DNA of 64,000 bases, taken from the IMG/VR virus record IMGVR_UViG_2936413993_000002, positions 1 through 64,000 of that record, one strand, 5' to 3'. How positions within the stretch are numbered: position 1 is the stretch's first letter; every line of letters starts with the position of its first letter. A program made the position numbers and the translations under genes. The notes under the pieces are model-generated. The model did not search any database. It was given only the letters and a program-made list of their open reading frames with translations, and had not been told where the DNA came from. Below are positions 7,298 to 31,236 of this stretch, piece by piece. This DNA comes from a virus (lineage: Duplodnaviria > Caudoviricetes).

Positions 7298-9541
7298 TTA
7301 CCTAGTTACTTTCATAGTCAGCTTAGAAGTAGTGGTCGGAGATTTACTGAATTTTATTGTATATCCTGTTGTTGATTTTGATTCTAACCACCAACTACCA
7401 TAATCCCATTCAAAGAAAGGATACACATCATAATCTGTATCCGGTTGCAATCTTTCAGGGGTAAATAAGTACTTATATTCTGTCCATCCTGTAGGTATAC
7501 TCAAACTGATTCTAGGTACATTGTAGTTTTTCAATCTTGTTGGTTCATCCGTTTCGGATAAATCAATGTTCCCATCTTTTGCTATAAAAGTAGGCTCCAT
7601 AAGTCCTGCTTTGTAAAAAGCTCCTACTTTCCCACGGAAAAGGTTATTTACCGCAATAATATTTACATTAAAAGAGTTAATTTCTGTACGTATCCATCGC
7701 ATTTTACCCATAGAATAAAACATATTACCATCTAAAATAATAAGATATGAGGAGATATCATCAACATTTGATATAGCGAAAAAGTTTTTAGCGTCAGATG
7801 CATTAATTGATTCATCGAACTTACTATTTTTTATACGTAAAACTCCAGCAGCCATAGAATTGCTCGCAAGAACTGTGTCATCTCCAATACTCGTTGTATT
7901 GGTTAGATTAAACCCGAGATTTGTTAGGATACTATCATTAATAGTAGTATCTGTACATTTAGCTATAGTAATTAACATTACATCGCTTCGGAGATTCCGA
8001 ACATATGGCACATTGCTAATCCGAACCTTTTTGTATGCATCAATCTCAAATAATTTATTTGTCCACTCCTGACGGGGATTGTTTTCGTTTGTTATCTCTA
8101 TAGACGTGTTATCAAGAATGAAGGCGGTTTGCATATACACTCCCCGATAAGCAGCAGCAAAATTGTATTTGGTTCTTTTGAATACTAACTTACTATTAAG
8201 TATTTCAATGTGCGGACTTTTTGTAACTCTCATCGCATCCATGTATATCAGTGAATTATTTACATGGATTCTTTGCGCCCAAGCCATTTGCAAACTACCT
8301 TTGCAATTATCTAATGAAATATTTCCTACCATGTCTGGAAATTCGTTGATTCCATTACTTGCTAAGAAGTTACCCACGCAATTAACATAAGTAATATCAA
8401 ACTCGCCCATCCCGTGGCAATCGAACGCTCCATGCCAATCGTTTATCATTCTTGCATTCTCTACTCGCATATGTCCACTTGATGTAAAATCAATTAGATG
8501 ACGTAGAAAATATCCACGAACGTTTTTGATTGACCCATGAACACTTGACATAATTTGCATACCGTATCCGCAACCTGCTGTTACAGTTCGTGCATAACTA
8601 GCAAGAAAGTTATCAATTATTGGATTGTAAACATTGCGCATCATCAACGCTGGAAATCGATGTTTTGAAGCTTTGTAGTTAAGTAATGTGAAATTAGTTG
8701 CGTAACGCACACTTATTCCAGCCACCCAACTGTCACGTTCACTATTATCAGTTATAGTTGAAGGAATAGGGGTATCGTTTATATCCTCAAATATCAAGTT
8801 TTCTATGGTTACATTATTTACTGGTTTTAATAAAGTGATATTCCCATTTACTTTATCAGGATTAAAACGAAGGTCTGAACAAACATCAATATACACATTA
8901 GCAGCATCGACATAGATAACACGCGCAATTGCATTCAACATGGATGGATTGTCACCATAATTCTTATCCCATGTGCCACTATGATTTCTTACATATACAG
9001 AAACAAAATCGCCTTTTTTAATTACATTTCCAATTGCCGTATTATCAGTTATGATTTTTGTCACTTGTGTAAATGGTTGTTTTAATCCCTTAAAATTATC
9101 ACCATTTGAATAAAACTCTTGATCAATAATTCCTTCATTAGAGATAATATCTACCACGTTTGTTTTAGTCGAATCAATTAGCTCTCCTCTAACAGTAATA
9201 GCTCCATATATTCTACCTGTACCATTATCAGAATCTAAACTTTCTGTTCCAGCGTAAAGTAATTTTGAACCATTAAAATCAATATGTATATCGTCTCTGG
9301 TAATAATTAAAGGTCTTGTGATTTTAAAAACTTTTTTATGAGGAAAACTCACCCTTGATCCAAATGGTAACGAATTGAATATACTTTGGAGAATAGTTGT
9401 TTCATCAGTTACTCCATCGCCTTTTGCACCTAACGATAATACGTTTGTGTTTATATCTTCTATTCGTATGGCAGTATTATTAAATTCTTGGTGTACATCA
9501 TCTCCTAACATAAACTTTGGTATTTTATTTAAATCAGCCAA
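7298..9541 (-). CDS. Pectate-lyase-like beta-helix tail spike / depolymerase
   Basis: 'NVLSLGAKGDGVTDET' Pectate_lyase_3 start and a long beta-helix-type body. Confidence 0.75.
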   Translation of the reverse strand: MADLNKIPKFMLGDDVHQEFNNTAIRIEDINTNVLSLGAKGDGVTDETTILQSIFNSLPFGSRVSFPHKKVFKITRPLIITRDDIHIDFNGSKLLYAGTESLDSDNGTGRIYGAITVRGELIDSTKTNVVDIISNEGIIDQEFYSNGDNFKGLKQPFTQVTKIITDNTAIGNVIKKGDFVSVYVRNHSGTWDKNYGDNPSMLNAIARVIYVDAANVYIDVCSDLRFNPDKVNGNITLLKPVNNVTIENLIFEDINDTPIPSTITDNSERDSWVAGISVRYATNFTLLNYKASKHRFPALMMRNVYNPIIDNFLASYARTVTAGCGYGMQIMSSVHGSIKNVRGYFLRHLIDFTSSGHMRVENARMINDWHGAFDCHGMGEFDITYVNCVGNFLASNGINEFPDMVGNISLDNCKGSLQMAWAQRIHVNNSLIYMDAMRVTKSPHIEILNSKLVFKRTKYNFAAAYRGVYMQTAFILDNTSIEITNENNPRQEWTNKLFEIDAYKKVRISNVPYVRNLRSDVMLITIAKCTDTTINDSILTNLGFNLTNTTSIGDDTVLASNSMAAGVLRIKNSKFDESINASDAKNFFAISNVDDISSYLIILDGNMFYSMGKMRWIRTEINSFNVNIIAVNNLFRGKVGAFYKAGLMEPTFIAKDGNIDLSETDEPTRLKNYNVPRISLSIPTGWTEYKYLFTPERLQPDTDYDVYPFFEWDYGSWWLESKSTTGYTIKFSKSPTTTSKLTMKVTR

Positions 9542-16842: not shown

Positions 16843-19800
16843 TTAAGATTTGTATGCTTCCCAGTAGTAAATGACATTTAATTTATTTCCATAGCATTCA
16901 GTTGAATTGCCAGTGAAGAAACCACCACTATCTAATTTCCCATTCGCAATAGATATGGGGGAAATGAGAACACTATTTTGTCCAAATAAAAAACCGCCTT
17001 CTGAAGACGGAATGAATAAACTAACATCTGTTGAGTTAGTTGTATATAATTTAACCAAAGAAGGGGAGAAGGGAAGTGCTATTAATTTACTTTGTGTTCC
17101 ATCTCCGACATAGCTACCACTAGCAAACCTTGATGCATTGCCTAACTGTGTTAAAGGAACATTTGCAGTTGAATCTAAGGTTGCTAACCCATTTGAAACT
17201 CCAGGTCTACGATTTCCAACGGAATTAGCATTTCCTGTAATGGATGCGTTTATCAAGCCTTTTGAATCTCTAACTGGAATAGAATTTGGAACATCATTAA
17301 TATCAGTTGGATAACCCGAAACAGAATTAGCATTACCTGATGAAAGAGGTTTATATCCAGTTTCGGTTAGCACTGATTGTTCTAAAGTTGCAGGGTTTAC
17401 CCATACAGTCTTGTTTACCTCGGCTTCTTCTGGTTCAACATCTGAAGTAACATAAATTGCCCCGTTTACCTTTCCGTAGAGTAATCCATTGACAACCGTT
17501 AATTCACTTGGTTGATAAGGATTTTGGTTTACGTCAGAAGGAGTTACTAAGTCAGAAAAGATAATCCCATCTATGTTAATGTCATCATCAACATGTCTAT
17601 AGGCTCGAACCCCCAATGTATAAAAACGATTAGGAGGGACGCTTGGGAAAGTGTATGTTTTAATAGAATAATTAACGGATATTATAGTTTCCTTTGCAAT
17701 TGTTGATCCGAATACATAGCGTTCTTTGGTTAAATCTGAATACATGTAGACAATAAATCCGTCAATGTTATCTGCATCTTTTTTAGTCTTTTCGTAATCA
17801 TTATAATTCCAGTTTATTGTTAAGTCAGCAGACCCATTATCGTTAATTTTATGTGCAATAGTTACGTTGGTTGGACTATTAGGTGTAACTGAAATACGAT
17901 CATTTCGAGAATTAAAATTTGTAGCAATATTGTTCCAATTGCGCTTCCGTTTATTGTAATCAGTATTAACCTTATCAATAGTATAAAGAGCATTTATTAA
18001 TCTTTCTTCATCGGATTTAGGTCTCTTAGTATTAGTAACGTTAATGCTAATCGAATAATTATCAAAATCAAATGCTAAAGAATCAACGGTTACTCTGACA
18101 TCTATTCCTATTTTTTTATGTTTAATTTTAATAATGTCACCAATAGATAAACGATTCCAATTATGTTTTTCTTCAAGGACAGCAAAGAAATTTATTATCC
18201 CCATTGAAATATTAATAGGAGGGGAACTAATATTTTTTAATTCCGTAATGGCAGATTCATACAAATCAGCATCATTTATTTGACTGTCATCTGAATATTC
18301 GCCCTCGAAAATAAAGTTCCTCAATTCTATTAAAAGGTTATCAGCAATATTGTTTTCTAATTTTAATAATAAATTTAATTTAGAAAGCTCAACATCAACA
18401 TTGGTTATTTCAGCCTGTTTAGAAGATAATTGCTTTTTCTGAGATGATATTTGAGATTCTTTATTATCCCGCTGCTGATTCAATGAGGCAGTTGATTCTC
18501 CACCATCTTTTGCTATTTGAATATTGTCTAATATAATCGTTAACTCGTTTTCTAATGTTCTAAATTTTGCATTTATATCCGCTAATTCCTTTTGTAAATT
18601 TGATTTTTTTTCTAGTAATTTACTGAAAGTGCCTGTGTTATTTTCTACTAGTTTATTATAGTTGATTAATGCAAGGCACAGTTCATCAGACATATAATAG
18701 CTGTGATTTGTTATATTGCCTTGAGTATCCATATCAAACGGATAAAGAAAATAAGAAAAGTTATCAATATACGATTGTCCAGTTGGATTAACCGAATTAA
18801 TGGATACATCATTAGCACCACTAACATGCAATCTTGTAACTATATCCTCAATTTCATCTGTTTGTTCAATGTTCTGAAGATATTTACCATATTCAACCCA
18901 AAAACCTTTATAAATAGAAACTTCTTCTTCCTTACAAATATGTACCTTTTTGTTAACCGTGTCGTAAATTACATACGCATTAAATTTTTTACATATCTCA
19001 TTGATAAAATCTAATTTACTACTGCTAGACACATCAAATTGATGGTACTTCAAATTGAATTCATCGTTTATATATCCAATGCTCCAATTAGTGTCTTTTA
19101 AAACATCATTTAACACTTGGAGGCAGTTATAAGATACAGCTTGGTAATTCAACATTTTACGATATCTTAATTCATACTCTAGTGAAAAACACTGAACATT
19201 AATTAAGTCACTATCTGATGAAGAGGGCTGTTTTTGAGTAATAATATACCAAGACTCTACACCAGCAAAAAGTAACTTTATTAAAAATCTCTCTCTTAAT
19301 AAATTCACTGTTTTATTTGAAACTAATTTATTTAATACTTCTATTTCATAAGGAAGAGAGAAGGATAACTCATTAGGATTTGTAAAATTTAGTGTCAACT
19401 TTCTATTGTACGATTCAGATAAATCTGCAATCACATTTCCAGTAGGAGTAGCTAAGAACAATTGGGGATTAGCTACATTTTCTCCATTTCTAACAATATA
19501 AGAACTAATTAAGCTATTAGGGTTAACTAACTCTTTTTCATATGGTATTTCTATTGGAGGCTTAATTACTCCATCTGTATCATCATCAGGTTGCTCAACA
19601 TCGTCACCATTACTACCATCATCATCTGGTTCTTCTGGTAATTCAGGAACAATAGGAGGTTCAGGCTCCTCAACTGGCGGTTTTTCAGGCTCTGGCTCTG
19701 GTGTTGGAACAGGTGTAGAAACAGAAAACGATGTAAAGTAAGATAGCGGTTTAGAACCATATAGTGCATTTAAATCGACATCACCTGATATGCCAGACAC

Positions 19801-20319
19801 TGACCCAGTAGATGTGTATTGCCATAAATCACATGCAATAGAAGGTTTAGTACTAGGTTTACCATTGTTCACACCGTATCTTGCAATCCATAAGAAATCT
19901 GCTTTAACTCTTGATAATTTATTAGTCTTATAGAAAGAATCACCTGAATATAACCCAACCTTTTTAGCACCTTGACTATGTAAATAATCAATAAAAGCTT
20001 GAGTCGCTGGAACTAAGTCGCTTGAATTCCTAGTTGTAATTTCTTCAACATCAATAACATAAGTGGTAGCGTTTTTGTCTGAACGTTTCCAAAAATCTTT
20101 AGCTTCTTGAACGGCATCGCTCACAGAAACATATTGAGCATATGCGTAGTGACCAAAGGGTATTTTATATTGTTTAGCACCAGCAACATACTCTTTATAC
20201 TTAGAATCAATTAAATTAGATCCATACTGGACTCGAATGAAAACATAATCCAACTCATTTTTTGCTTTAGACCAATTTATCGTTCCTTGCCATTTAGAAA
20301 TATCGGCTATTTTCCCCAA
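16843..20319 (-). CDS. Tail hub/Tal-like protein (prophage tail endopeptidase family) with N-terminal GH25 muramidase and Pro/Asp-rich linker
   Basis: GH25 motifs DISKWQG, IDVEE, LWIARYG, WQYTSTG..VDLN; then PEPEP linker; then 'IVTRLHVSG', 'LSIGDII' tail domain and an FN3-like region. Confidence 0.8.
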   Translation of the reverse strand: MGKIADISKWQGTINWSKAKNELDYVFIRVQYGSNLIDSKYKEYVAGAKQYKIPFGHYAYAQYVSVSDAVQEAKDFWKRSDKNATTYVIDVEEITTRNSSDLVPATQAFIDYLHSQGAKKVGLYSGDSFYKTNKLSRVKADFLWIARYGVNNGKPSTKPSIACDLWQYTSTGSVSGISGDVDLNALYGSKPLSYFTSFSVSTPVPTPEPEPEKPPVEEPEPPIVPELPEEPDDDGSNGDDVEQPDDDTDGVIKPPIEIPYEKELVNPNSLISSYIVRNGENVANPQLFLATPTGNVIADLSESYNRKLTLNFTNPNELSFSLPYEIEVLNKLVSNKTVNLLRERFLIKLLFAGVESWYIITQKQPSSSDSDLINVQCFSLEYELRYRKMLNYQAVSYNCLQVLNDVLKDTNWSIGYINDEFNLKYHQFDVSSSSKLDFINEICKKFNAYVIYDTVNKKVHICKEEEVSIYKGFWVEYGKYLQNIEQTDEIEDIVTRLHVSGANDVSINSVNPTGQSYIDNFSYFLYPFDMDTQGNITNHSYYMSDELCLALINYNKLVENNTGTFSKLLEKKSNLQKELADINAKFRTLENELTIILDNIQIAKDGGESTASLNQQRDNKESQISSQKKQLSSKQAEITNVDVELSKLNLLLKLENNIADNLLIELRNFIFEGEYSDDSQINDADLYESAITELKNISSPPINISMGIINFFAVLEEKHNWNRLSIGDIIKIKHKKIGIDVRVTVDSLAFDFDNYSISINVTNTKRPKSDEERLINALYTIDKVNTDYNKRKRNWNNIATNFNSRNDRISVTPNSPTNVTIAHKINDNGSADLTINWNYNDYEKTKKDADNIDGFIVYMYSDLTKERYVFGSTIAKETIISVNYSIKTYTFPSVPPNRFYTLGVRAYRHVDDDINIDGIIFSDLVTPSDVNQNPYQPSELTVVNGLLYGKVNGAIYVTSDVEPEEAEVNKTVWVNPATLEQSVLTETGYKPLSSGNANSVSGYPTDINDVPNSIPVRDSKGLINASITGNANSVGNRRPGVSNGLATLDSTANVPLTQLGNASRFASGSYVGDGTQSKLIALPFSPSLVKLYTTNSTDVSLFIPSSEGGFLFGQNSVLISPISIANGKLDSGGFFTGNSTECYGNKLNVIYYWEAYKS

Positions 20320-20332
20320 TTATTTTCACCTC

Positions 20333-21097
20333 CTATGAAACAAATTTAAAGCGATATTGAAATTTAATTTTACAATTTCCCGATATCTGAATCCGATTCT
20401 TCCCTACATAAAGAGGTAAATAAAAATCATTGAAATTATCATACCTATATATGTTAGGTAAATTAGTTTCAATGATTTGATTTTCCCCATTTATCATAAC
20501 TTTTTCATTCTTATTTAATGAGACTATTTTCAGAACATTATTAGCTCTACTTAAATTCGTAATTTCTACATTTCCGTCATCCAATTTACTTATATAAATT
20601 AAAGGATATATCGTTTCATGTCCTAGATTTATTATTTCTAAAGTAGTAGGTGAATTCTTACATTCATACCATCGAGTAGTAGATTGTCTACCATAGACAT
20701 ATGGAGAGTCACAGCGCATGGTTAGTGTGATATAACCTTGCTTTAAACCATTATGAATAAGTTCAGTTGATTCTACAGGCATACAATAATAAACTTTATC
20801 TAGATTTTCACTGAAAGATAGAGGCTGGTAATAGTCAACATTCAACCATTTAATTACTTCATGTATTTGTTTATCGTCCCACTTATCATCAAAGTAAAAA
20901 CTTAATTGAAAGGAGAGAGGGGATTTTTCGATATCTATAAAATAAGGCTTATCTCGACCACGAATCGACACTTCATTTATTGTTCGATTACTCATTAATG
21001 GTTCATTAAATAAACTGTTACTTACAGACACATTCATAATGTTAAATCTAGTTGAACGCACACCCGCAAATTCAAAATATAAACTTTCCCTAATCAC
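20333..21097 (-). CDS. Distal tail protein (Dit, YomH-like)
   Basis: Lies between tape measure and Tal; 'LTMRCDSPY', 'LYVGKNRI'. Confidence 0.8.
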   Translation of the reverse strand: MIRESLYFEFAGVRSTRFNIMNVSVSNSLFNEPLMSNRTINEVSIRGRDKPYFIDIEKSPLSFQLSFYFDDKWDDKQIHEVIKWLNVDYYQPLSFSENLDKVYYCMPVESTELIHNGLKQGYITLTMRCDSPYVYGRQSTTRWYECKNSPTTLEIINLGHETIYPLIYISKLDDGNVEITNLSRANNVLKIVSLNKNEKVMINGENQIIETNLPNIYRYDNFNDFYLPLYVGKNRIQISGNCKIKFQYRFKFVS

Positions 21098-21153: not shown

Positions 21154-24100
21154 TTATATATTTCCACCTAATTTTCTTACTCCGTTAACAAATGTATTTA
21201 ATAATGTTTTAGCACCGTTTTGATCACCAGTCACCTTTAAGTCCCCAAATGTTACATGGTAATGATTATCTCCTCCAGTAGATATAGAAGGGGAAAGGGA
21301 GGGGGCATTAGGTCTTTTAAAACTTGTCTGTAAATTCAGCGCTGCGTTACCTAAAACTTTTCCCAACTCTAAACTTTTCAACGAATTCGCTAAAGTTTTT
21401 GACTCTTCTATAGTCGATAAGAAATTTTCAGTGTCATTTTCTTTCAAAATAATTTCTTTCTTATCCAAGTAGGCTAAACCTTCAGAATCACCAGTATATC
21501 CGCCGGTATTAAATTTCTGAATTTTGATAGGCTTATAATCTTTACCGTTTAGATATCGATTGGCTTGGTTGATTAAATCAATAAGGTTATTAGATATAGC
21601 TTTTCCCATGATATTAGAATTAGCTTTAATATTACTGAAATACTTATTCAAATCCTTTTGAATCTGACTAGCATTTCCATTGATAATGTCAGAGCGCATT
21701 TTAGCAAACTTACGTTCATCATTTACAAGATTATCAAATTCTTCTTGGATAGAATCCTTTTGAGTATTTAGATTATCGATTCTAAGCTGTTTTTCTCTGT
21801 CGGATTGCATGTCATCTAGCACTTCATCCATATCTGCTAATTGATCTTGTAACTCTTTAACCTTAGCAATACCTGCAAATGAGTCATCTAATGAATATTT
21901 AGCTATGTCATCTAATAACTTTTGTCGCTCACTTTGTTTTTTAGCTAAGTCTTTTGTGTATGATTCATCGTCATCTTTCTTATTGATAGCATCAATCATT
22001 TTATCAATTGTCTTAAGACGAGTGTCTTTAATTGATTCCGCAGCTTGTTTGTAAGTATCAACAATGGTATCTACCATTTGCTTACGTTGGTCTAATAGCT
22101 GAGTCTCAAGAGAAATCATATCTTGAGTACGTTGAAGTAAATCATCTGATAATTGAGCTTTCTGCGCTTCGGTTAAAGCTTTATTGTTTTTAATTTGCTC
22201 TTTCAGATATTTTATAGCTTCTTGCTCATAACCAAACTGTTTACGAAGTAGCTTTTCTTTCTTTAATTGCGCATCCGTCCACTTATTAGAAGACTCTGTT
22301 TCATAACTTTGAACAAGGTCAATTTGAGCCAAGTCGTCTTCGAGTACAGCTTTTTTGTAGTCGATGCCAGCAAGAACAGAGTTAACTAGCTCCATATTAA
22401 GATCATTGATTTGTTGCTGTATCTGTAATGCTTCTTCTTGCATACTCAATACGTCAGACTTAGCTTGGTCAATAGCTTGTATTTTATCTGCTATTGCACT
22501 TGATGTATCTGCACTAGCTGAGCCAGTAGGGGTAGTACCAGCATATTTCGTATATATACTGTTGGCATACTTTTGACGATTACCTAGAGCATCACCACCT
22601 GAACGTTCAAACGCTTTTTCGAATAGAAGGGCAGCATCGTTAACTCCCATATTCATGAAAGCATTCATACCACCATTTTTATTAATGATGGACTTTGTTG
22701 TAGGGTCTGCACCGTTTAATTCTTTCCATAACCATTCAAGTTGAGTGTTAAGGTTAGTATAGCTAGTACCTTGAGATCCAGCAAAGTTTTTAAGTCCACT
22801 TAAACGCCCACCTAACCATTGAGCGATACCAGTAGCACCTGATGACCTATTAACAGCAGTGGTTGAAAAACCAGATTCTTGACGTAAATTTCCCATAATA
22901 CCAGCAGTTGCAGAATCAGAGAAACCTTTAGACTTAAAGAAATTCCAAACAGACGCTTCAGTACTTCCTCCACTTGCATAGTTGGAAGTAGAAGGGGAAG
23001 TGGAACTTATAGTTGTCTTAGTACCTTTAGCAACTATATTTCCTGATTTAATTTGCTTGTTAAGGCTATTAACTTCAGTATTCATTAACTTCAATTGCTG
23101 TTCTTTAAGTTTGATTTCCTGTTTAATTGCATCCTGGTATTTCTTAGAACGCTGTGGATATTCACTTTTAATTTTATCCACTTTAGCTAAAGCAAGACCT
23201 AACTCTTCCATTTTTTGCTTATATTTATCAGTTGTATATGTAGATTTTTCGTTAGCTTTGCTTGTTTTATCAGAGGAAGATTCTGCAGATGTGCCAACTT
23301 CAGTTAATCCTTGAGATACTAATCCAGAAAGTGAATCGATTTGATCATATAAATCAATTACATCTTGAATTGAATTGTATGCACCAACCATGTCGTTCAC
23401 GAATGTATCATCTGGACTAGGTAGCCCGCCCATTGCATACATTTCTAAACGTTTTTTATTTTCTTCTGATTGAAGATCCGCTAAACGTTTCTTTGCATCT
23501 TGTAATGATTGGATAGCCTTAATTTCGATGCCATAATTTTTAAGTTTTGACAGTGTAGCATTTGCAGTATTTTGCGCTTCTGCTATAACTGATTTTTCCA
23601 TATCTTTATAAGATTTTAATTTAGCGTCACGAAGTTTTAATACCGCTTCTTTATTGATGGATACCTGTCCGTTTTCAATTTTGATAGCATCGGTGAGCGA
23701 TTTTTCCTTATTCATTAGGTTTATCGCTTCGTTAGCAGATATAGATTTACCGTTAGCCATTTTCTCTAAAACTTCATTTAAAGGCGAAATTTCATTTGAA
23801 AGTGCTTCATACCCATCTTTTAATGCAACATTGACAGCGGCTTGATAATCTCCAGCTTGAGCCATTTCGATGATAATGTCTTTTATGGCTTCAAAGTCAC
23901 CTTTAGCATCTTGGAGTCTGGATGATAAATCTTTGTATTCACCCGAAACTTCCCCGACAACTTCACCATTCTCATCCCAAATTACTTTCTGACCTTTAGC
24001 TGCATCTGAAACTCCATTTATACTATCTTTAACTTGTTGGAAGGATAATTCTAGATTTCTTGATCCGCCTTCAGCAACATTATAAGAAGTAAGAAGATCA

Positions 24101-25352
24101 TCTAAATCAGCTTTAGCAATCTTATAGGCATTCTCATCATTATTTGTTACAGCATTTTGCATTTTCTTCATAGCAGAAGATACGTTGGTTGCAAAAGTAT
24201 TCAGTTCTTCAGCAGATGCACCAGAAACATCAAGTGAGCTAATAACACTGTTTACTTTAGCAGTAATAGAAGTGTCAATAGTTATGTCAGTAAAATAAGA
24301 GTCTACAGTTTTCTGCAACTCTTCACGTAATTTCATTTGTTGCTCATTGTATTGACGTTTTAATTCAGTAATTTCAATTTCGATTTTCTTTTTATCCGCA
24401 TCTGAGTATTTAATACCACTGACTCCAGCTTTATGATCAAGAACTCGATTCTTTTTATCAATTTTATTGTCTATTTTATCTGCTGATTTCAATGCGGATT
24501 GGATATTGTCTTGAGCTTCAAGTTGTTGTAGTTCTTTCTTTTGACGAACAAGTTCTTTAGTATACTCAATTTCTTGTTTAAGTGCATCTCCAACTTTTAA
24601 GACAGCATTTCCTTGTGAGTCATAATGATCAACAAGAGAAGGGAGGAGACCCGCAAGTTGTTGTGATACTTGTAAATACTCTTTTTCTTTATCGCTATTA
24701 AAATTGCCCGAGTGTTTAGCTTCAGTTAATTCTTGATATTTCTTTAATAATTCATCAGTTGCTTGTTTATTAGCTGTTAATGACTCAACCGTTGTATTCT
24801 GAATTTGTTCATATTCTTGTTGTTTTTGTTTAGCTTCGGCAAAGTGGTTTGTTATTTTTTCGATAGCAAAACCTAAAACAGTTAATATAGCACCTACGCC
24901 AGTAGCCACCATTAAACCACGTAATGCTGTTTTAAATACAGCAGTAGCTATAGCTGCTCTTGACATACCAGCTTCCAAACCAAATAAAGAAGTTGCAGTA
25001 CCAGCTAGAGATACATTTCCAGTAAGAAGGGCAGTAGACATTCCTCGAACATTCTTACTTAGTAATACTGTTGCGACACCAGCAGTTCCCATTACAATAG
25101 GTAATACTCCAATTACATCTATTACATCGCCAGTAGTTTTTAGAAAGTCACCAAATTCTTCAGTAGCCACAATTAAAGTATCAGATATTAGTGCATCTCC
25201 AGCACTTACTGCCAAAGATGTAAATGCGTTAGAAAGGCGGTTAATACGAGCTTGTAGAGATTCTGAATATTTTTCTTGTTCACGCATTGCCGAGCCAAAA
25301 CTATTAGCCGCTGTTTCAGATGCTTCTTGCGCTATCGAGTAGTTGTTCATCA
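21154..25352 (-). CDS. Tape measure protein, exon 4 (contains a phage tail lysozyme domain)
   Basis: Long helical protein with 'VWNFFKSKGFSDSATAGIMGNLRQESGF...GIAQWLGGR' lysozyme; continues exon 3 in frame after intron removal. Confidence 0.9.
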
Positions 25353-25662
25353 CGTTAATTCATATATTTCTATATGCACAGACTATATCATCATCTTAAT
25401 AAGATGTTCGGCACTTCGAACGGTAGCTCATTACCCGTCCTACAATTAGTCGTTGCACTTTTCCTCCCATAAAAGAAATAGGGGACTTAGCACAGGATTG
25501 CCATATTCAATATAAATAAGATATATTGAACTTAGGTTTCCCTGTTAGCAAATTCATTAGCAATCATTTCCTATTGTTACTAAACGTTGAATTTACACCT
25601 CTGAGCAATAGAGTTCACCGAATTTTACATATATTATCACTAATATACGGCACTGTATTCCA
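25353..25662 (-). ncRNA. Group I intron 3 of the tape measure gene (310 nt, no ORF)
   Basis: Exon ends in U (GCAU); P1 GCAU|UG-GAAUA-CAGUGC with U.G pair; P7 elements GCAACGACUA and GAUAUAGUCUG; terminal G; splicing gives RFNALMNNYS. Confidence 0.9.
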
Positions 25663-25885
25663 ATGCATTAAACCTCGATAGTTGATACATGCCAGCACCT
25701 TTTACACCCACATTTTGTTTTTCAGCATCAGATAGGGTGTTCCATTTAGCCGCAATCTCATCTAAAATTTGACCAGTTGGCTTTAGTTTTCCATTAGCAT
25801 CATTTATTGAAATACCAATATCATTTAATGCACCAATTGCTTGAGAATTATTTGTTAATCTAGCGAAAATAGTTTTTAAAGAGTT
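25663..25885 (-). CDS. Tape measure protein, exon 3
   Basis: NSLKTIFARL...YQLSRFNA, conserved TP901-type tape measure core. Confidence 0.9.
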
Positions 25886-26122
25886 CACTCTGTTACTTTC
25901 ACCAATAAAGGTTACTGACCATAGTTAATTATATGGCGGTAAGGCACTTCAACCTTACTCTCTATGTCTCCATAGAAGTTCAGACTATCGCTTCATTCTA
26001 TTAAGAATGTCTCTTCACTTAGTCGTTCACGCTGCAATTACGCTTGCGCCCTGTCTCCCTCGTCTAAACGTTAGGGGTTCCAAGTCAATCAGAAGAGATT
26101 TAATGTCAGCAATTCGACATTT
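25886..26122 (-). ncRNA. Group I intron 2 of the tape measure gene (237 nt, no ORF)
   Basis: Exon UGUCGGU pairs with guide GCUGACA (U.G at the splice site); P7 elements GAACGACUA and CGAUAGUCUG; terminal G; splicing gives GNIVG-NSLK. Confidence 0.88.
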
Positions 26123-26258
26123 ACCGACAATATTTCCGCTTTCTCTTGTAGTACTTGCAATGGCTGTTGTGTAACCAATTAAATCATTTAATTCTACATT
26201 GAAAGTAGATGCAGTACTACCTGCTTTACGAATAGAATTTGCTAAATCTAATGTTGTT
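26123..26258 (-). CDS. Tape measure protein, exon 2 (absent from the ORF track)
   Basis: Translates as TTLDLANSIRKAGSTASTFNVELNDLIGYTTAIASTTRESGNIVG. Confidence 0.9.
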
Positions 26259-26569
26259 CAATTATACCCTGTGTTTCCACATATTTAAAAGGGGTTAGAC
26301 TATATCTTGTAGTCAATGACTACGTTGGCACTTCCTATAAAGGAATTTCACCTTTACAGTACAATCCTCATCTCCATATCATTTGACGTAGGAGGTACGA
26401 ATTAGTCGTTACACCTTCAAGAAAGTTTCCCTTCAAGCTTGGCACGGTATTACCATATCCCTATGGACTTAGGCTTCCACCGTTAGCATTCGCTAGAACA
26501 CACCCTGCATTTACAGGTTCACCAACTTCTTATAGTATGTCGCCATACTAAGCAGCACAACAGAAGTTT
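26259..26569 (-). ncRNA. Group I intron 1 of the tape measure gene (311 nt, no ORF)
   Basis: Exon GCAGU pairs with guide GCUGC; P10 UGUUGU pairs with 3' exon ACAACA; P7 elements AACGACUA and AGAUAUAGUCU; terminal G; splicing gives DNNYAV-TTLDL. Confidence 0.92.
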
Positions 26570-27975
26570 ACTGCGTAATTGTTATCAACTTCATTTAATT
26601 TATCAGCTATCTGAGCAGAATCTTCCGCAGCTATATTGAAATTGAGCATTGCTGCAGTAAGAGTATTAACAGTATCATCTGGAGTTAAATCCGAGACATT
26701 CTGTAGGATTTGAGCAGTGCGTGATACAGCAGTCAACTGATTTTCATCATATCCCATTCGACCAAAGCCGCCATACATATCAAGGATGTCACCGATTTTA
26801 TTCGAGAGTTGATCACCTAGAGCAATAGATTCCTTCATTAAATCATTAAATTTATAGTCTGGTAAATCCATCACTCTTCGTAAATTGGTCATTTTTGTAT
26901 CAAGTTCAACCACTTGATTTGTCATGTCTTTAATAGTATTAACAAATCCATAAAATGCCCCATATGTAAGCATTCCAACCGAAATAAAGCTAAATGCCGA
27001 TTGCACTCTTTCGCCAAATGTTCTAGCTTGAGCACCTGCATTTCTTGCTTCTGAGGTTATTTCATTAAACCTTAAAGACATTTCACGCAATCTTTGATTC
27101 AATTGAGGAGTTCTAGCTGTTAATGAGTTTATTGACTGTAAGTAAGCATTCAACTGAGCCGTTTGCGTTGAGTTTAAATTAGAATTAGCTTTAAAGTTAT
27201 TTACTTTTAATTCAGCTTCACGTTGAGCAAGTATTAACTTATTTTGCATTTCTCTAACTTTATTAACATTATCAATGTTTTGTTTAAGTCTATTTAATTG
27301 TTCAATATTCTTAGCACTATTAACTGCATTATTTAATCTAGATAAACTATCAGAAGATATTTTACCTTCACTGTTTAAAAGTCTAAGGGTATCTCTTAAT
27401 TTATTTTTACTATTTATTAATGTTTCAGTTGCTTTTCTTTCTTGGTCTAGGTTCTGTACAGTTTTAACAGAGGTAACATCACCATTGACATTAGAATTTA
27501 CAGTTGTATTTGTGAATCCATTCTTAAATTGATTAGAAGTAGAAGTACCATTATTAGTCTGAGTAGTAACTTGTTTTTGTTTCTGACCAAGTTTATCATA
27601 CGCTACTTGTAATTTATTTGTATTTTCAATTTCCTTTTGAGTAGCTTTATTCTTATTATTAATACGAGTTATTTCTTTTTGAATAATTTCTCCACTTTTT
27701 AACTGTTGAGAAATCCTTTCTTTTGTAACGCCATTTACATCTTTAGTAATTGTTTTTTCTTCTTTAAGAACTCTATTCAATTGAGAAGAGATATTCTTAT
27801 AGTTTTCCATAGCTTTAGCATAATCTGTAAGAGACTTTGCTACTTTATCATCAAGCTGGATATTTAGTTTAATCTTTGATAAATCTTTTTCTATTTTGGA
27901 TATTACTTTATTTACTTCGGTAATAGTAGCTTTAGAATTCAAAGTACCTATAATTCTAAGTTTTAAATCTGACAT
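26570..27975 (-). CDS. Tape measure protein (YomI/CwlP-like), exon 1; spliced CDS is 5964 nt / 1987 aa
   Basis: AAAGGAG RBS; 'LDTKMTNLRRVMD...ADKLNEVDNNYAV' tape measure core; exon lengths 1406+136+223+4199 sum to a multiple of 3. Confidence 0.9.
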
Positions 27976-29769: not shown

Positions 29770-31236
29770 TTAAATATGAGAAACCTGAAACTGTGTATTT
29801 GCAACCATAAAATAAGGTTGAATGATTGTGTTATTTAGAACTATGCTTCCGTTAGAAGTTAAATGATAGTTAAAACTATTGTAATCATCTAAAATACCAT
29901 TTTTCAGAATATAAAATTCTATTAACTTTTCGCAGAGAAGAGAATTTTTATTTATGTCTTTTTCCCATAAATAAAGTATCTTTGTATTATACTTATTTTC
30001 AATATAATTTCTTTTTCTAGAATCTTTCTTGGCATTCTTAGCTTGCATATCATTTAAATATTCTACACTTTCGTATCTTATAGGAGAGGCATGCCAATAA
30101 TCTCCCATTATTTCTATTCCTAACTGATAATCAGGTAGATAAATATCCATTGAATAATATCCAAATACTTTTTCATTTTGATAACTAATCCCTATTGATT
30201 CTAACAAATTGTTAATTTTAACATGAATACTTGTTCCAGTGTTTTTTAAATCAGAGATTTCCATTCTTCTTTGTTGATAACAATCGAATGAGCAAAAGAA
30301 GTACTTATTCTTATTAAAAACACTTTCATGCACATACTTAATTTTTGCGCATGTATAACATTTAACTTTTACTTTTTCTTTTTTTGGATTGGGATTATGA
30401 AGTTTAAAGTATTCATTTCTACATCTCGATGAACAGAAAATTATATTTCCTCGAATTTCACTAGGATATTTATAGGTTTCTGTATTACATAGTGCACAAT
30501 AATTTTTTAATTTATTTTGTTCTCTTTTAAAGTCGCTCATTACATCTTTAAACTCATCCGTTTTCGTCCATATCAATCGACAAGCATTGGAGCAAAAATA
30601 TCTATCTTGAGATTCAATTCTGTATTTCGCTAAATAAAATTCATTTCCACAAGTATGACAATTTACAAAAGAACCTTTCATAATTGAAGTATTCGATTTA
30701 CCAATTTTATGCTTATCAGCACATCTTCTTGAACAAAAATGATTTTCACCACTATTTACTCTTGTTTTTATTCTAATAATTTCAGACGAGCAATATGTAC
30801 ATTTTAGTTGTAATCTCTCAACCCTATATCCTAAGGGACGACCTAGTTTAAATTTATCAGTACATTCTTTTGAACAAAAGACATTTTTATTTTCAATTAA
30901 ATCACTTTTTGCTCTTAATATTTTTTTGTGACAATACATACAATTTAAATCAATTTTACTATAATTCCAAGGTTTTTTTCCTATTAAATATGAATCCTGA
31001 CAATTACGTGAACAAAAATGATTTTTATTTTTAGATTTTCCACTGTAAGTAGCTATATGATTTTCTCCACAATAGTCACATATAAATTTAACTGGAGCTC
31101 TGCTAGAAAAAGGTAAATGCTCCACATTTACATGGAATTCCTTACCGTTCTCAAAACTCTTATATCCTAGATTAGTATAATAGGCTTTATTTCTATTACT
31201 CCATTTCATGACAGTAGTCTGATTAGGCACAATCAC
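29770..31236 (-). CDS. Free-standing endonuclease: about six tandem CxxC..FCSxxC zinc-binding repeats plus C-terminal Vsr/DUF559-like nuclease
   Basis: Repeated C-x2-C...FCS-x2-C; 'YSMDIYLP..LGIEIMGDYWH...KD..K...LYLWE'. Confidence 0.8.
   Translation of the reverse strand: MIVPNQTTVMKWSNRNKAYYTNLGYKSFENGKEFHVNVEHLPFSSRAPVKFICDYCGENHIATYSGKSKNKNHFCSRNCQDSYLIGKKPWNYSKIDLNCMYCHKKILRAKSDLIENKNVFCSKECTDKFKLGRPLGYRVERLQLKCTYCSSEIIRIKTRVNSGENHFCSRRCADKHKIGKSNTSIMKGSFVNCHTCGNEFYLAKYRIESQDRYFCSNACRLIWTKTDEFKDVMSDFKREQNKLKNYCALCNTETYKYPSEIRGNIIFCSSRCRNEYFKLHNPNPKKEKVKVKCYTCAKIKYVHESVFNKNKYFFCSFDCYQQRRMEISDLKNTGTSIHVKINNLLESIGISYQNEKVFGYYSMDIYLPDYQLGIEIMGDYWHASPIRYESVEYLNDMQAKNAKKDSRKRNYIENKYNTKILYLWEKDINKNSLLCEKLIEFYILKNGILDDYNSFNYHLTSNGSIVLNNTIIQPYFMVANTQFQVSHI

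Follow-up and report, generated by a model that had tools for sequence, protein, structure and literature searches.

A YomI-like tape measure gene of a Caudoviricetes provirus very probably carries three group I introns that lack open reading frames

The tape measure gene of a tailed phage provirus (Duplodnaviria; Caudoviricetes; IMG/VR record IMGVR_UViG_2936413993_000002), related to yomI of phage SPbeta, very probably contains three group I introns without open reading frames (ORFs), whose splicing would give a single protein of 1987 amino acids (aa). The gene occupies positions 21154..27975 on the minus strand of the analyzed stretch of DNA (positions 1 to 64,000 of the record, 64,000 nucleotides (nt), hereafter the window) and is split into four exons by three introns. 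The present analysis confirms the three inserts, their ends and the restored reading frame, as they had been described in a first-pass annotation made from the DNA letters alone. Splicing itself we infer from the sequence features presented below.

In the ORF list the gene is split into minus-strand pieces of 475 aa (26548-27975), 82 aa (25640-25888) and 1399 aa (21154-25353), as originally reported. Exon 1 (26570..27975, 1406 nt) comprises codons 1-468 plus 2 nt, with U as its last base, and is followed by intron 1 (26259..26569, 311 nt), carrying an in-frame stop codon at intron nt 20-22. Exon 2 (26123..26258, 136 nt) is separated from exon 3 (25663..25885, 223 nt), which also ends with U, by intron 2 (25886..26122, 237 nt), where the first in-frame stop is codon 32. 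Intron 3 (25353..25662, 310 nt), with an in-frame stop at intron nt 21-23, precedes the long exon 4 (21154..25352, 4199 nt). Deletion of the three inserts (311 + 237 + 310 = 858 nt) leaves a coding sequence of 5964 nt for 1987 aa with a single terminal stop, and reproduces in silico the junction peptides NNYAV|TTLDL, GNIVG|NSLK and RFNAL|MNNYS given in the first-pass annotation. No intron exceeds 311 nt, and the introns are overlapped solely by chance antisense ORFs of 51-57 aa, in agreement with their earlier description as ORF-less. In silico translation of the unspliced RNA halts after 475 codons, yielding the truncated product that had been predicted. No exon-skipped form stays in frame; their stops come after 471, 514 or 480 codons.

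The exons encode consecutive parts of one protein. The PhageMin_Tail domain (PF10145) continues in order from profile positions 6-89 in exon 1 (residues 385-467) through 95-132 in exon 2 to 136-196 in exon 3. The profile phrog_4211, "tail length tape measure protein," is matched by exon 1 (profile 198-725) and exon 4 (profile 850-1777), and residues 797-936 of the exon 4 product correspond to the tail lysozyme domain Phage_lysozyme2 (PF18013, 113.6 bits). Residues 14-468 of exon 1 are 41-42% identical to YomI proteins of the SPbeta family. The spliced protein compared by blastp with the uninterrupted YomI of SPbeta itself (2285 aa; locus L001) shows 605/1480 identities (41%). This alignment, proposed as a check in the first-pass annotation, is colinear, gap-free and near-identical at all three junctions; exon 2 is near-identical to YomI, exon 3 aligns to it without gaps, and exon 4 is aligned as well. 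The PhageMin_Tail core, the great length of the product and the position of its gene upstream of Dit/Tal-like genes indicate a phage tail tape measure protein. The genes downstream code for a Dit-like protein (20333-21097) and a minor tail protein (16843-20319), an order corresponding to that of yomH and yomG in SPbeta.

The pieces could also be read as independent genes that need no splicing and whose products together form a split tape measure. The record of Geobacillus virus E3 presents its tape measure as two coding sequences, the N-terminal GP42 and the C-terminal GP43, and the 1399-aa piece of the window is listed with a GTG start at 25353. Such an arrangement is nevertheless very hard to credit. 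Exon 2 (45 codons) has no ORF of at least 50 aa in the ORF list, and a single PF10145 domain runs colinearly through pieces lying in different frames. The gaps between the pieces are filled by matches to group I introns, as is also the case in E3 (48.7 bits), and an allele without intron 3, described below, is one continuous frame.

The affiliation of the inserts with group I introns was assessed using the Rfam model RF00028 (gathering score 50 bits), a search that the first-pass annotation had also suggested. The model matched all three inserts on the coding strand and over its full length (1-253). Intron 3 was matched at 25360-25626 (-) with a score of 79.5 bits, which exceeds the gathering score, and RF00028 was the one Rfam family returned for the 64-kb window at the gathering threshold. 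A permissive scan of positions 25000-27000 matched intron 2 at 25960-26211 (-) with 36.1 bits (E 4.5e-7) and intron 1 at 26277-26579 (-) with 31.1 bits (E 1.4e-5); at the scale of the whole record the E-values of these two matches are 4.1e-9 and 1.3e-7, respectively. The provirus record of 75,052 bases contains precisely three RF00028 matches, all in the tape measure gene. In the Rfam alignment, the stretch inserted after the 5' strand of P7 and before the 3' strand of P3 is about 70 nt long in intron 1 and 31 nt in intron 3, and is missing in intron 2. Phage introns of subgroup IA (IA2-like) carry extra helices, P7.1/P7.2, at this position. Introns 1 and 3 share a common core with the tape measure intron of Geobacillus virus E3, with compensatory differences in P2 and in the hairpin following P7. 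Two other explanations of the interrupted frame were rejected: inteins, since the inserts contain stops and do not keep the frame, and programmed frameshifting, since the inserts measure 237-311 nt and possess ribozyme cores.

The ends of the inserts are those of group I introns. The base 5' of each insert is an exon U and the last base of each insert is G; for intron 3, a TG repeat leaves a 2-nt ambiguity, and one placement alone gives both the exon U and the terminal G. When the final 10 bases of the exon were folded together with the initial 40 bases of the intron, the minimum free energy structure at all three junctions was a P1 helix with a U.G pair at the 5' splice site. P1 comprises 9 bp with one bulge in intron 1, 9 bp in intron 2 and 6 bp in intron 3, and the G opposite the last exon U lies at intron positions 14, 13 and 10, respectively. 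A P2 hairpin comes after P1 in introns 1 and 3. The P7 strands GACUA / UAGUC are placed on the P7 of the model in all three introns, and a perfect 7-bp P3 (UCUCUUC / GAAGAGA) of intron 2 can be read from the alignment of its homologues. The exon U and terminal G, the P1 with its wobble pair and the P7 pairing, all noted in the first-pass annotation, are borne out by these data.

According to the proposed mechanism, each transcribed intron would fold into a group I core (P3-P9), and its internal guide would pair with the last exon bases, placing the U.G wobble at the 5' splice site. Two guanosine-dependent transesterifications would remove each intron, up to its terminal G, and the four exons would be joined into one messenger RNA for the 1987-aa tape measure protein with its tail lysozyme domain.

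A close relative of the gene was found in public DNA (run X2), where a contig of 21.8 kb is near-identical to the window exons (3 differences in 351 nt and none in 442 nt). This contig skips positions 25351-25664, with four letters between the flanks, which amounts to the net loss of exactly 310 nt, the length of intron 3. The junction in its place reads Ala-Leu-Met and departs from the predicted ligated exons at two positions, both synonymous. This intron-less allele therefore fixes both ends of intron 3 independently. In the same run intron 2 is unchanged, and intron 1 is diverged, with the core (26368-26459) kept and two peripheral stretches replaced. Twelve exon differences are listed, and read in the spliced frame every one of them is a synonymous change at a third codon position. 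Five of these fall in exon 2, which has no independent reading frame. Such a pattern is expected if purifying selection acts on the spliced product. In another DNA run (X1, at least 99% identity), which spans all splice sites, the introns are present; this run is perhaps the source sample and is thus not independent. A joint between 25588 and 26500 (side 26) in run X19, which is probably DNA, was rejected, as it looks like cross-matching between related intron cores.

The occurrence of the inserts was compared, over residues 380-720 of the spliced protein, in 86 loci: 75 fetched with a three-sequence alignment of the tape measure N-terminus, nine metagenome loci, SPbeta (L001) and Geobacillus virus E3 (L002). 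The three-sequence alignment was used after exon 1 as a single-protein query had found no relative in genome contigs or viral contigs. The region is uninterrupted in 66 of 77 loci (11 interrupted) and in 7 of 9 further loci, and since most relatives thus lack interruptions, the inserts are optional. None of the 86 loci has more than two interruptions, and no insert at window site 3 was found among the compared relatives.

Homologues of intron 2 are present at the identical nucleotide (site 2, after codon 514) in 8 of the 86 loci. Six loci (L009, L029, L036, L039, L067, and L069) have inserts of 224-225 nt homologous to intron 2, and one family member is found at this site in the metagenome locus L081. 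In the eighth, a Siminovitchia contig (L015, 6057-6988), ends of the intron-2 type flank an ORF of 214 aa with a LAGLIDADG_2 domain (95.9 bits). Intron 2 is taken to represent a family separate from that of introns 1 and 3, homing to its exact site, and the endonuclease-bearing form in L015 is likely the mobile ancestor of the ORF-less copies. An alignment of five intron-2 homologues and the window copy, analyzed with RNAalifold, revealed compensatory changes in 9 of 66 predicted pairs, one of them located in P7 and others in P5, P6, P8, and the P9 hairpins. One P7 pair is A-U in intron 2 of the window and G-C in the other five sequences.

Several observations weigh against functional introns. 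Some of them would agree better with another possibility, in which the inserts derive from group I introns but one or more of these have lost the ability to splice through decay, leaving the tape measure gene as a pseudogene of a defective prophage. The Rfam scores of introns 1 and 2 are under the gathering threshold (31.1 and 36.1 vs. 50 bits), and three non-standard pairs are flagged by Rfam in the assigned P3 of intron 1. A search of six interrupted loci for RF00028, over 67 kb and at E <= 0.01, found no match in L009, L015, L016, L029, and L069. Four of these (L009, L015, L029, and L069) contain intron-2 homologues, the homology being established by direct alignment; the curated model therefore sees the intron-2 family weakly. 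P10 pairing from exon position +1 is limited to 2 bp for introns 1 and 2 when searched by script; for intron 3 the script finds 4 bp, formed against a different candidate guide. By eye, exon positions +2..+6 at intron 1 are complementary to the 5 nt directly 5' of the P1 G, so that a P10 with a 1-nt offset is plausible for this intron. The provirus record is estimated to be 58% complete, leaving room for a defective element. Finally, no spliced RNA joint at the predicted splice sites was found in the four runs compared, one of which is a metatranscriptome.

The metatranscriptome, from a food fermentation (run X20), yielded three short contigs, none of which bridges a splice site. One of them, a 163-nt RNA contig, matches an inner stretch of intron 1 (26381-26543) without a difference; it might represent excised intron RNA that is stable, carried-over DNA or a further intron copy.

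Decay of the introns is nevertheless improbable. The exclusively synonymous exon differences from the close relative argue against a pseudogene, and P1 and P7, together with P3 in intron 2, are intact. The helices of the intron-2 family have been kept via compensatory changes over six sequences. In the relative from run X2 intron 2 is unchanged, and in intron 1 the core has been kept while the periphery was replaced. Three functional ORF-less introns in a YomI-like gene remain the preferred reading.

Insertions at other points of the same region were found in different phages. Geobacillus virus E3 (NC_029073; L002, the same phage as L077) contains a group I intron at 7546-7849 (RF00028, 48.7 bits), 14 nt upstream of window site 1, and a group I intron of 96.8 bits lies in approximately the same position in locus L084. 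Among 60 listed of the 137 phage records with the tape measure core, only E3 has this core in two pieces. Altogether, at least five distinct insertion points lie between codons 463 and 588, and in different phages these are occupied by members of two or more group I families and by one group II intron; the PhageMin_Tail core looks like a hot spot of intron insertion. A megablast search of positions 25200-26800 against 50,697 phage records gave no match. Partial matches were recorded for intron 1 to introns in the DNA polymerase genes of SPO1-like Bacillus phages (SDFMU_Pbc, phiAGATE, Grass, and Bastille), for intron 2 to a region of Tuc2009 and others, and for intron 3 to regions of SPbeta-family and Staphylococcus phages.

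The inserts of three relatives are described here in more detail. The tape measure gene of a prophage in a Saccharibacillus deserti contig (L012, 6589-7247) contains an ORF-less group II intron of 659 nt, 4 nt upstream of window site 1 (RF02004, 104 bits; RF00029, 62.1 bits). It begins with GUGCG, and its removal restores ...NNFA|ITTQDL. The metagenome contig L081 (5456-6027) has a related tape measure gene in which two group I introns follow one another, with a mini-exon of about 55-60 nt between them. The first of them (102.7 bits) is located at about codon 494, some 20 codons upstream of site 2; the second is the intron-2 family member mentioned above. A distant tape measure homologue in an uncultured Clostridium metagenome-assembled genome (L016, 5700-7435) has an insert of 1.7 kb at codons about 507-547, which encodes a 382-aa ORF with weak matches to CapR and treble-clef zinc-finger domains and gives no Rfam intron match.

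The first-pass interpretation stands as regards the three ORF-less group I introns, the 1987-aa frame and the 475-aa truncation. The rarity of tape measure introns that it implied is not supported by the following comparisons with published work. Tape measure genes of Bacillus cereus-group prophages were described in 2008 as having group I introns at three sites (TMP-IVS1, IVS2, and IVS3a/b), with no gene holding more than two (Tourasse and Kolsto, 2008; PMC2504315). These belong to classes IA1 and IA2 and are mostly devoid of a complete endonuclease gene; the survey also lists a tape measure intron for Lactobacillus phage JCL1032, and remarks that group II introns have not been found in phages (PMC2504315). 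The introns of the window resemble those of the B. cereus group in that complete endonucleases are mostly missing, several sites are used in one gene and stop codons occur early in the introns. In that group related introns have adapted their P1 to different sites, and introns 1 and 3 of the window are likewise related to each other, with stops within 23 nt. The B. cereus-group genes, however, contain no more than two introns (IVS1 and IVS3a in E33L) and belong to lambdaBa01-like and other prophages, whereas the window has three in 1.2 kb of an SPbeta/YomI-type gene.

The tape measure transcript of Vibrio phage ICP1 has four exons and three introns, as determined by RNA sequencing and reverse transcription PCR, and tape measure genes are called frequently interrupted by the same authors (Barth et al., 2023; PMC10448857). 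The likeness to the window concerns the number of exons and introns. Unlike the window, with its three ORF-less introns and predicted splicing, ICP1 infects a Gram-negative host, its middle intron usually carries an HNH endonuclease gene, and its splicing has been shown. Three group I introns in one tail structural gene are also known from orf142 of Staphylococcus phage Twort, for which exon skipping was reported (Landthaler and Shub, 1999) and whose product was later recognized as the tail tube protein (cited in PMC11878797). That gene is a different one and belongs to a lytic myovirus, and exon skipping in the window would put every product out of frame. Two or three group I introns per gene, of 802 nt on average and often with endonuclease genes, occur in DNA polymerase and terminase genes of Bastillevirinae (PMC11878797). 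The number per gene is similar to that in the window and the polymerase introns resemble intron 1, but they reside in replication and packaging genes and, unlike those of the window, often carry endonuclease genes. Geobacillus virus E3 shares with the window the SPbeta-like gene order and an intron with the core of introns 1 and 3, and differs in having one intron only. No printed description of introns in yomI-type genes was found in a literature search limited to SPbeta yomI introns. The arrangement is therefore of a type known in phage tail genes and not a new principle, to which an SPbeta-type example is added.

Several features of the tape measure protein and of its surroundings were observed in addition. 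The alignment with YomI is interrupted between residues 1435 and 1549, and because of this break the enzymatic module is taken to differ from that of SPbeta. In the downstream tail protein of 1158 aa (16843-20319, -), the first ~280 residues match endolysin PHROGs (phrog_291, 1e-59), and the remainder matches the minor tail protein phrog_6211. A free-standing ORF of 488 aa is located at 29770-31236 (-), upstream of the tape measure start by about 1.8 kb. Its match to the Vsr endonuclease is weak (24.3 bits, under the cut-off of 27), and it also has a PHROG match to "homing endonuclease" (E 8.6e-6). In Geobacillus virus E3 a place comparable to that of this Vsr-like ORF is taken by an unrelated HNH_repeat protein (183 bits).

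The three introns are most simply regarded as selfish passengers, phenotypically near-neutral because they would splice. It could alternatively be imagined that splicing of three introns within 1.2 kb is not neutral, with slow or conditional splicing setting the timing or amount of the full-length protein, the truncated products of 471-514 aa having a role of their own, and the Vsr-like endonuclease (29770-31236) mobilizing the introns in trans; this appears unlikely. The proposal of the first-pass annotation that splicing gates or delays virion production is speculation.

Under the preferred reading of three splicing introns, the intron number of this gene is the highest seen in its family and exceeds that of any of the 86 compared relatives. 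The finding is also of relevance for annotation. Gene calling would break a gene of this type into three or four fragments, and that of Geobacillus virus E3 was deposited in such a form, while the true product in the window would be one protein of 1987 aa. The relative that lacks intron 3 alone forms with the window a natural pair, suited to gauging whether an intron in a structural gene is costly or beneficial.

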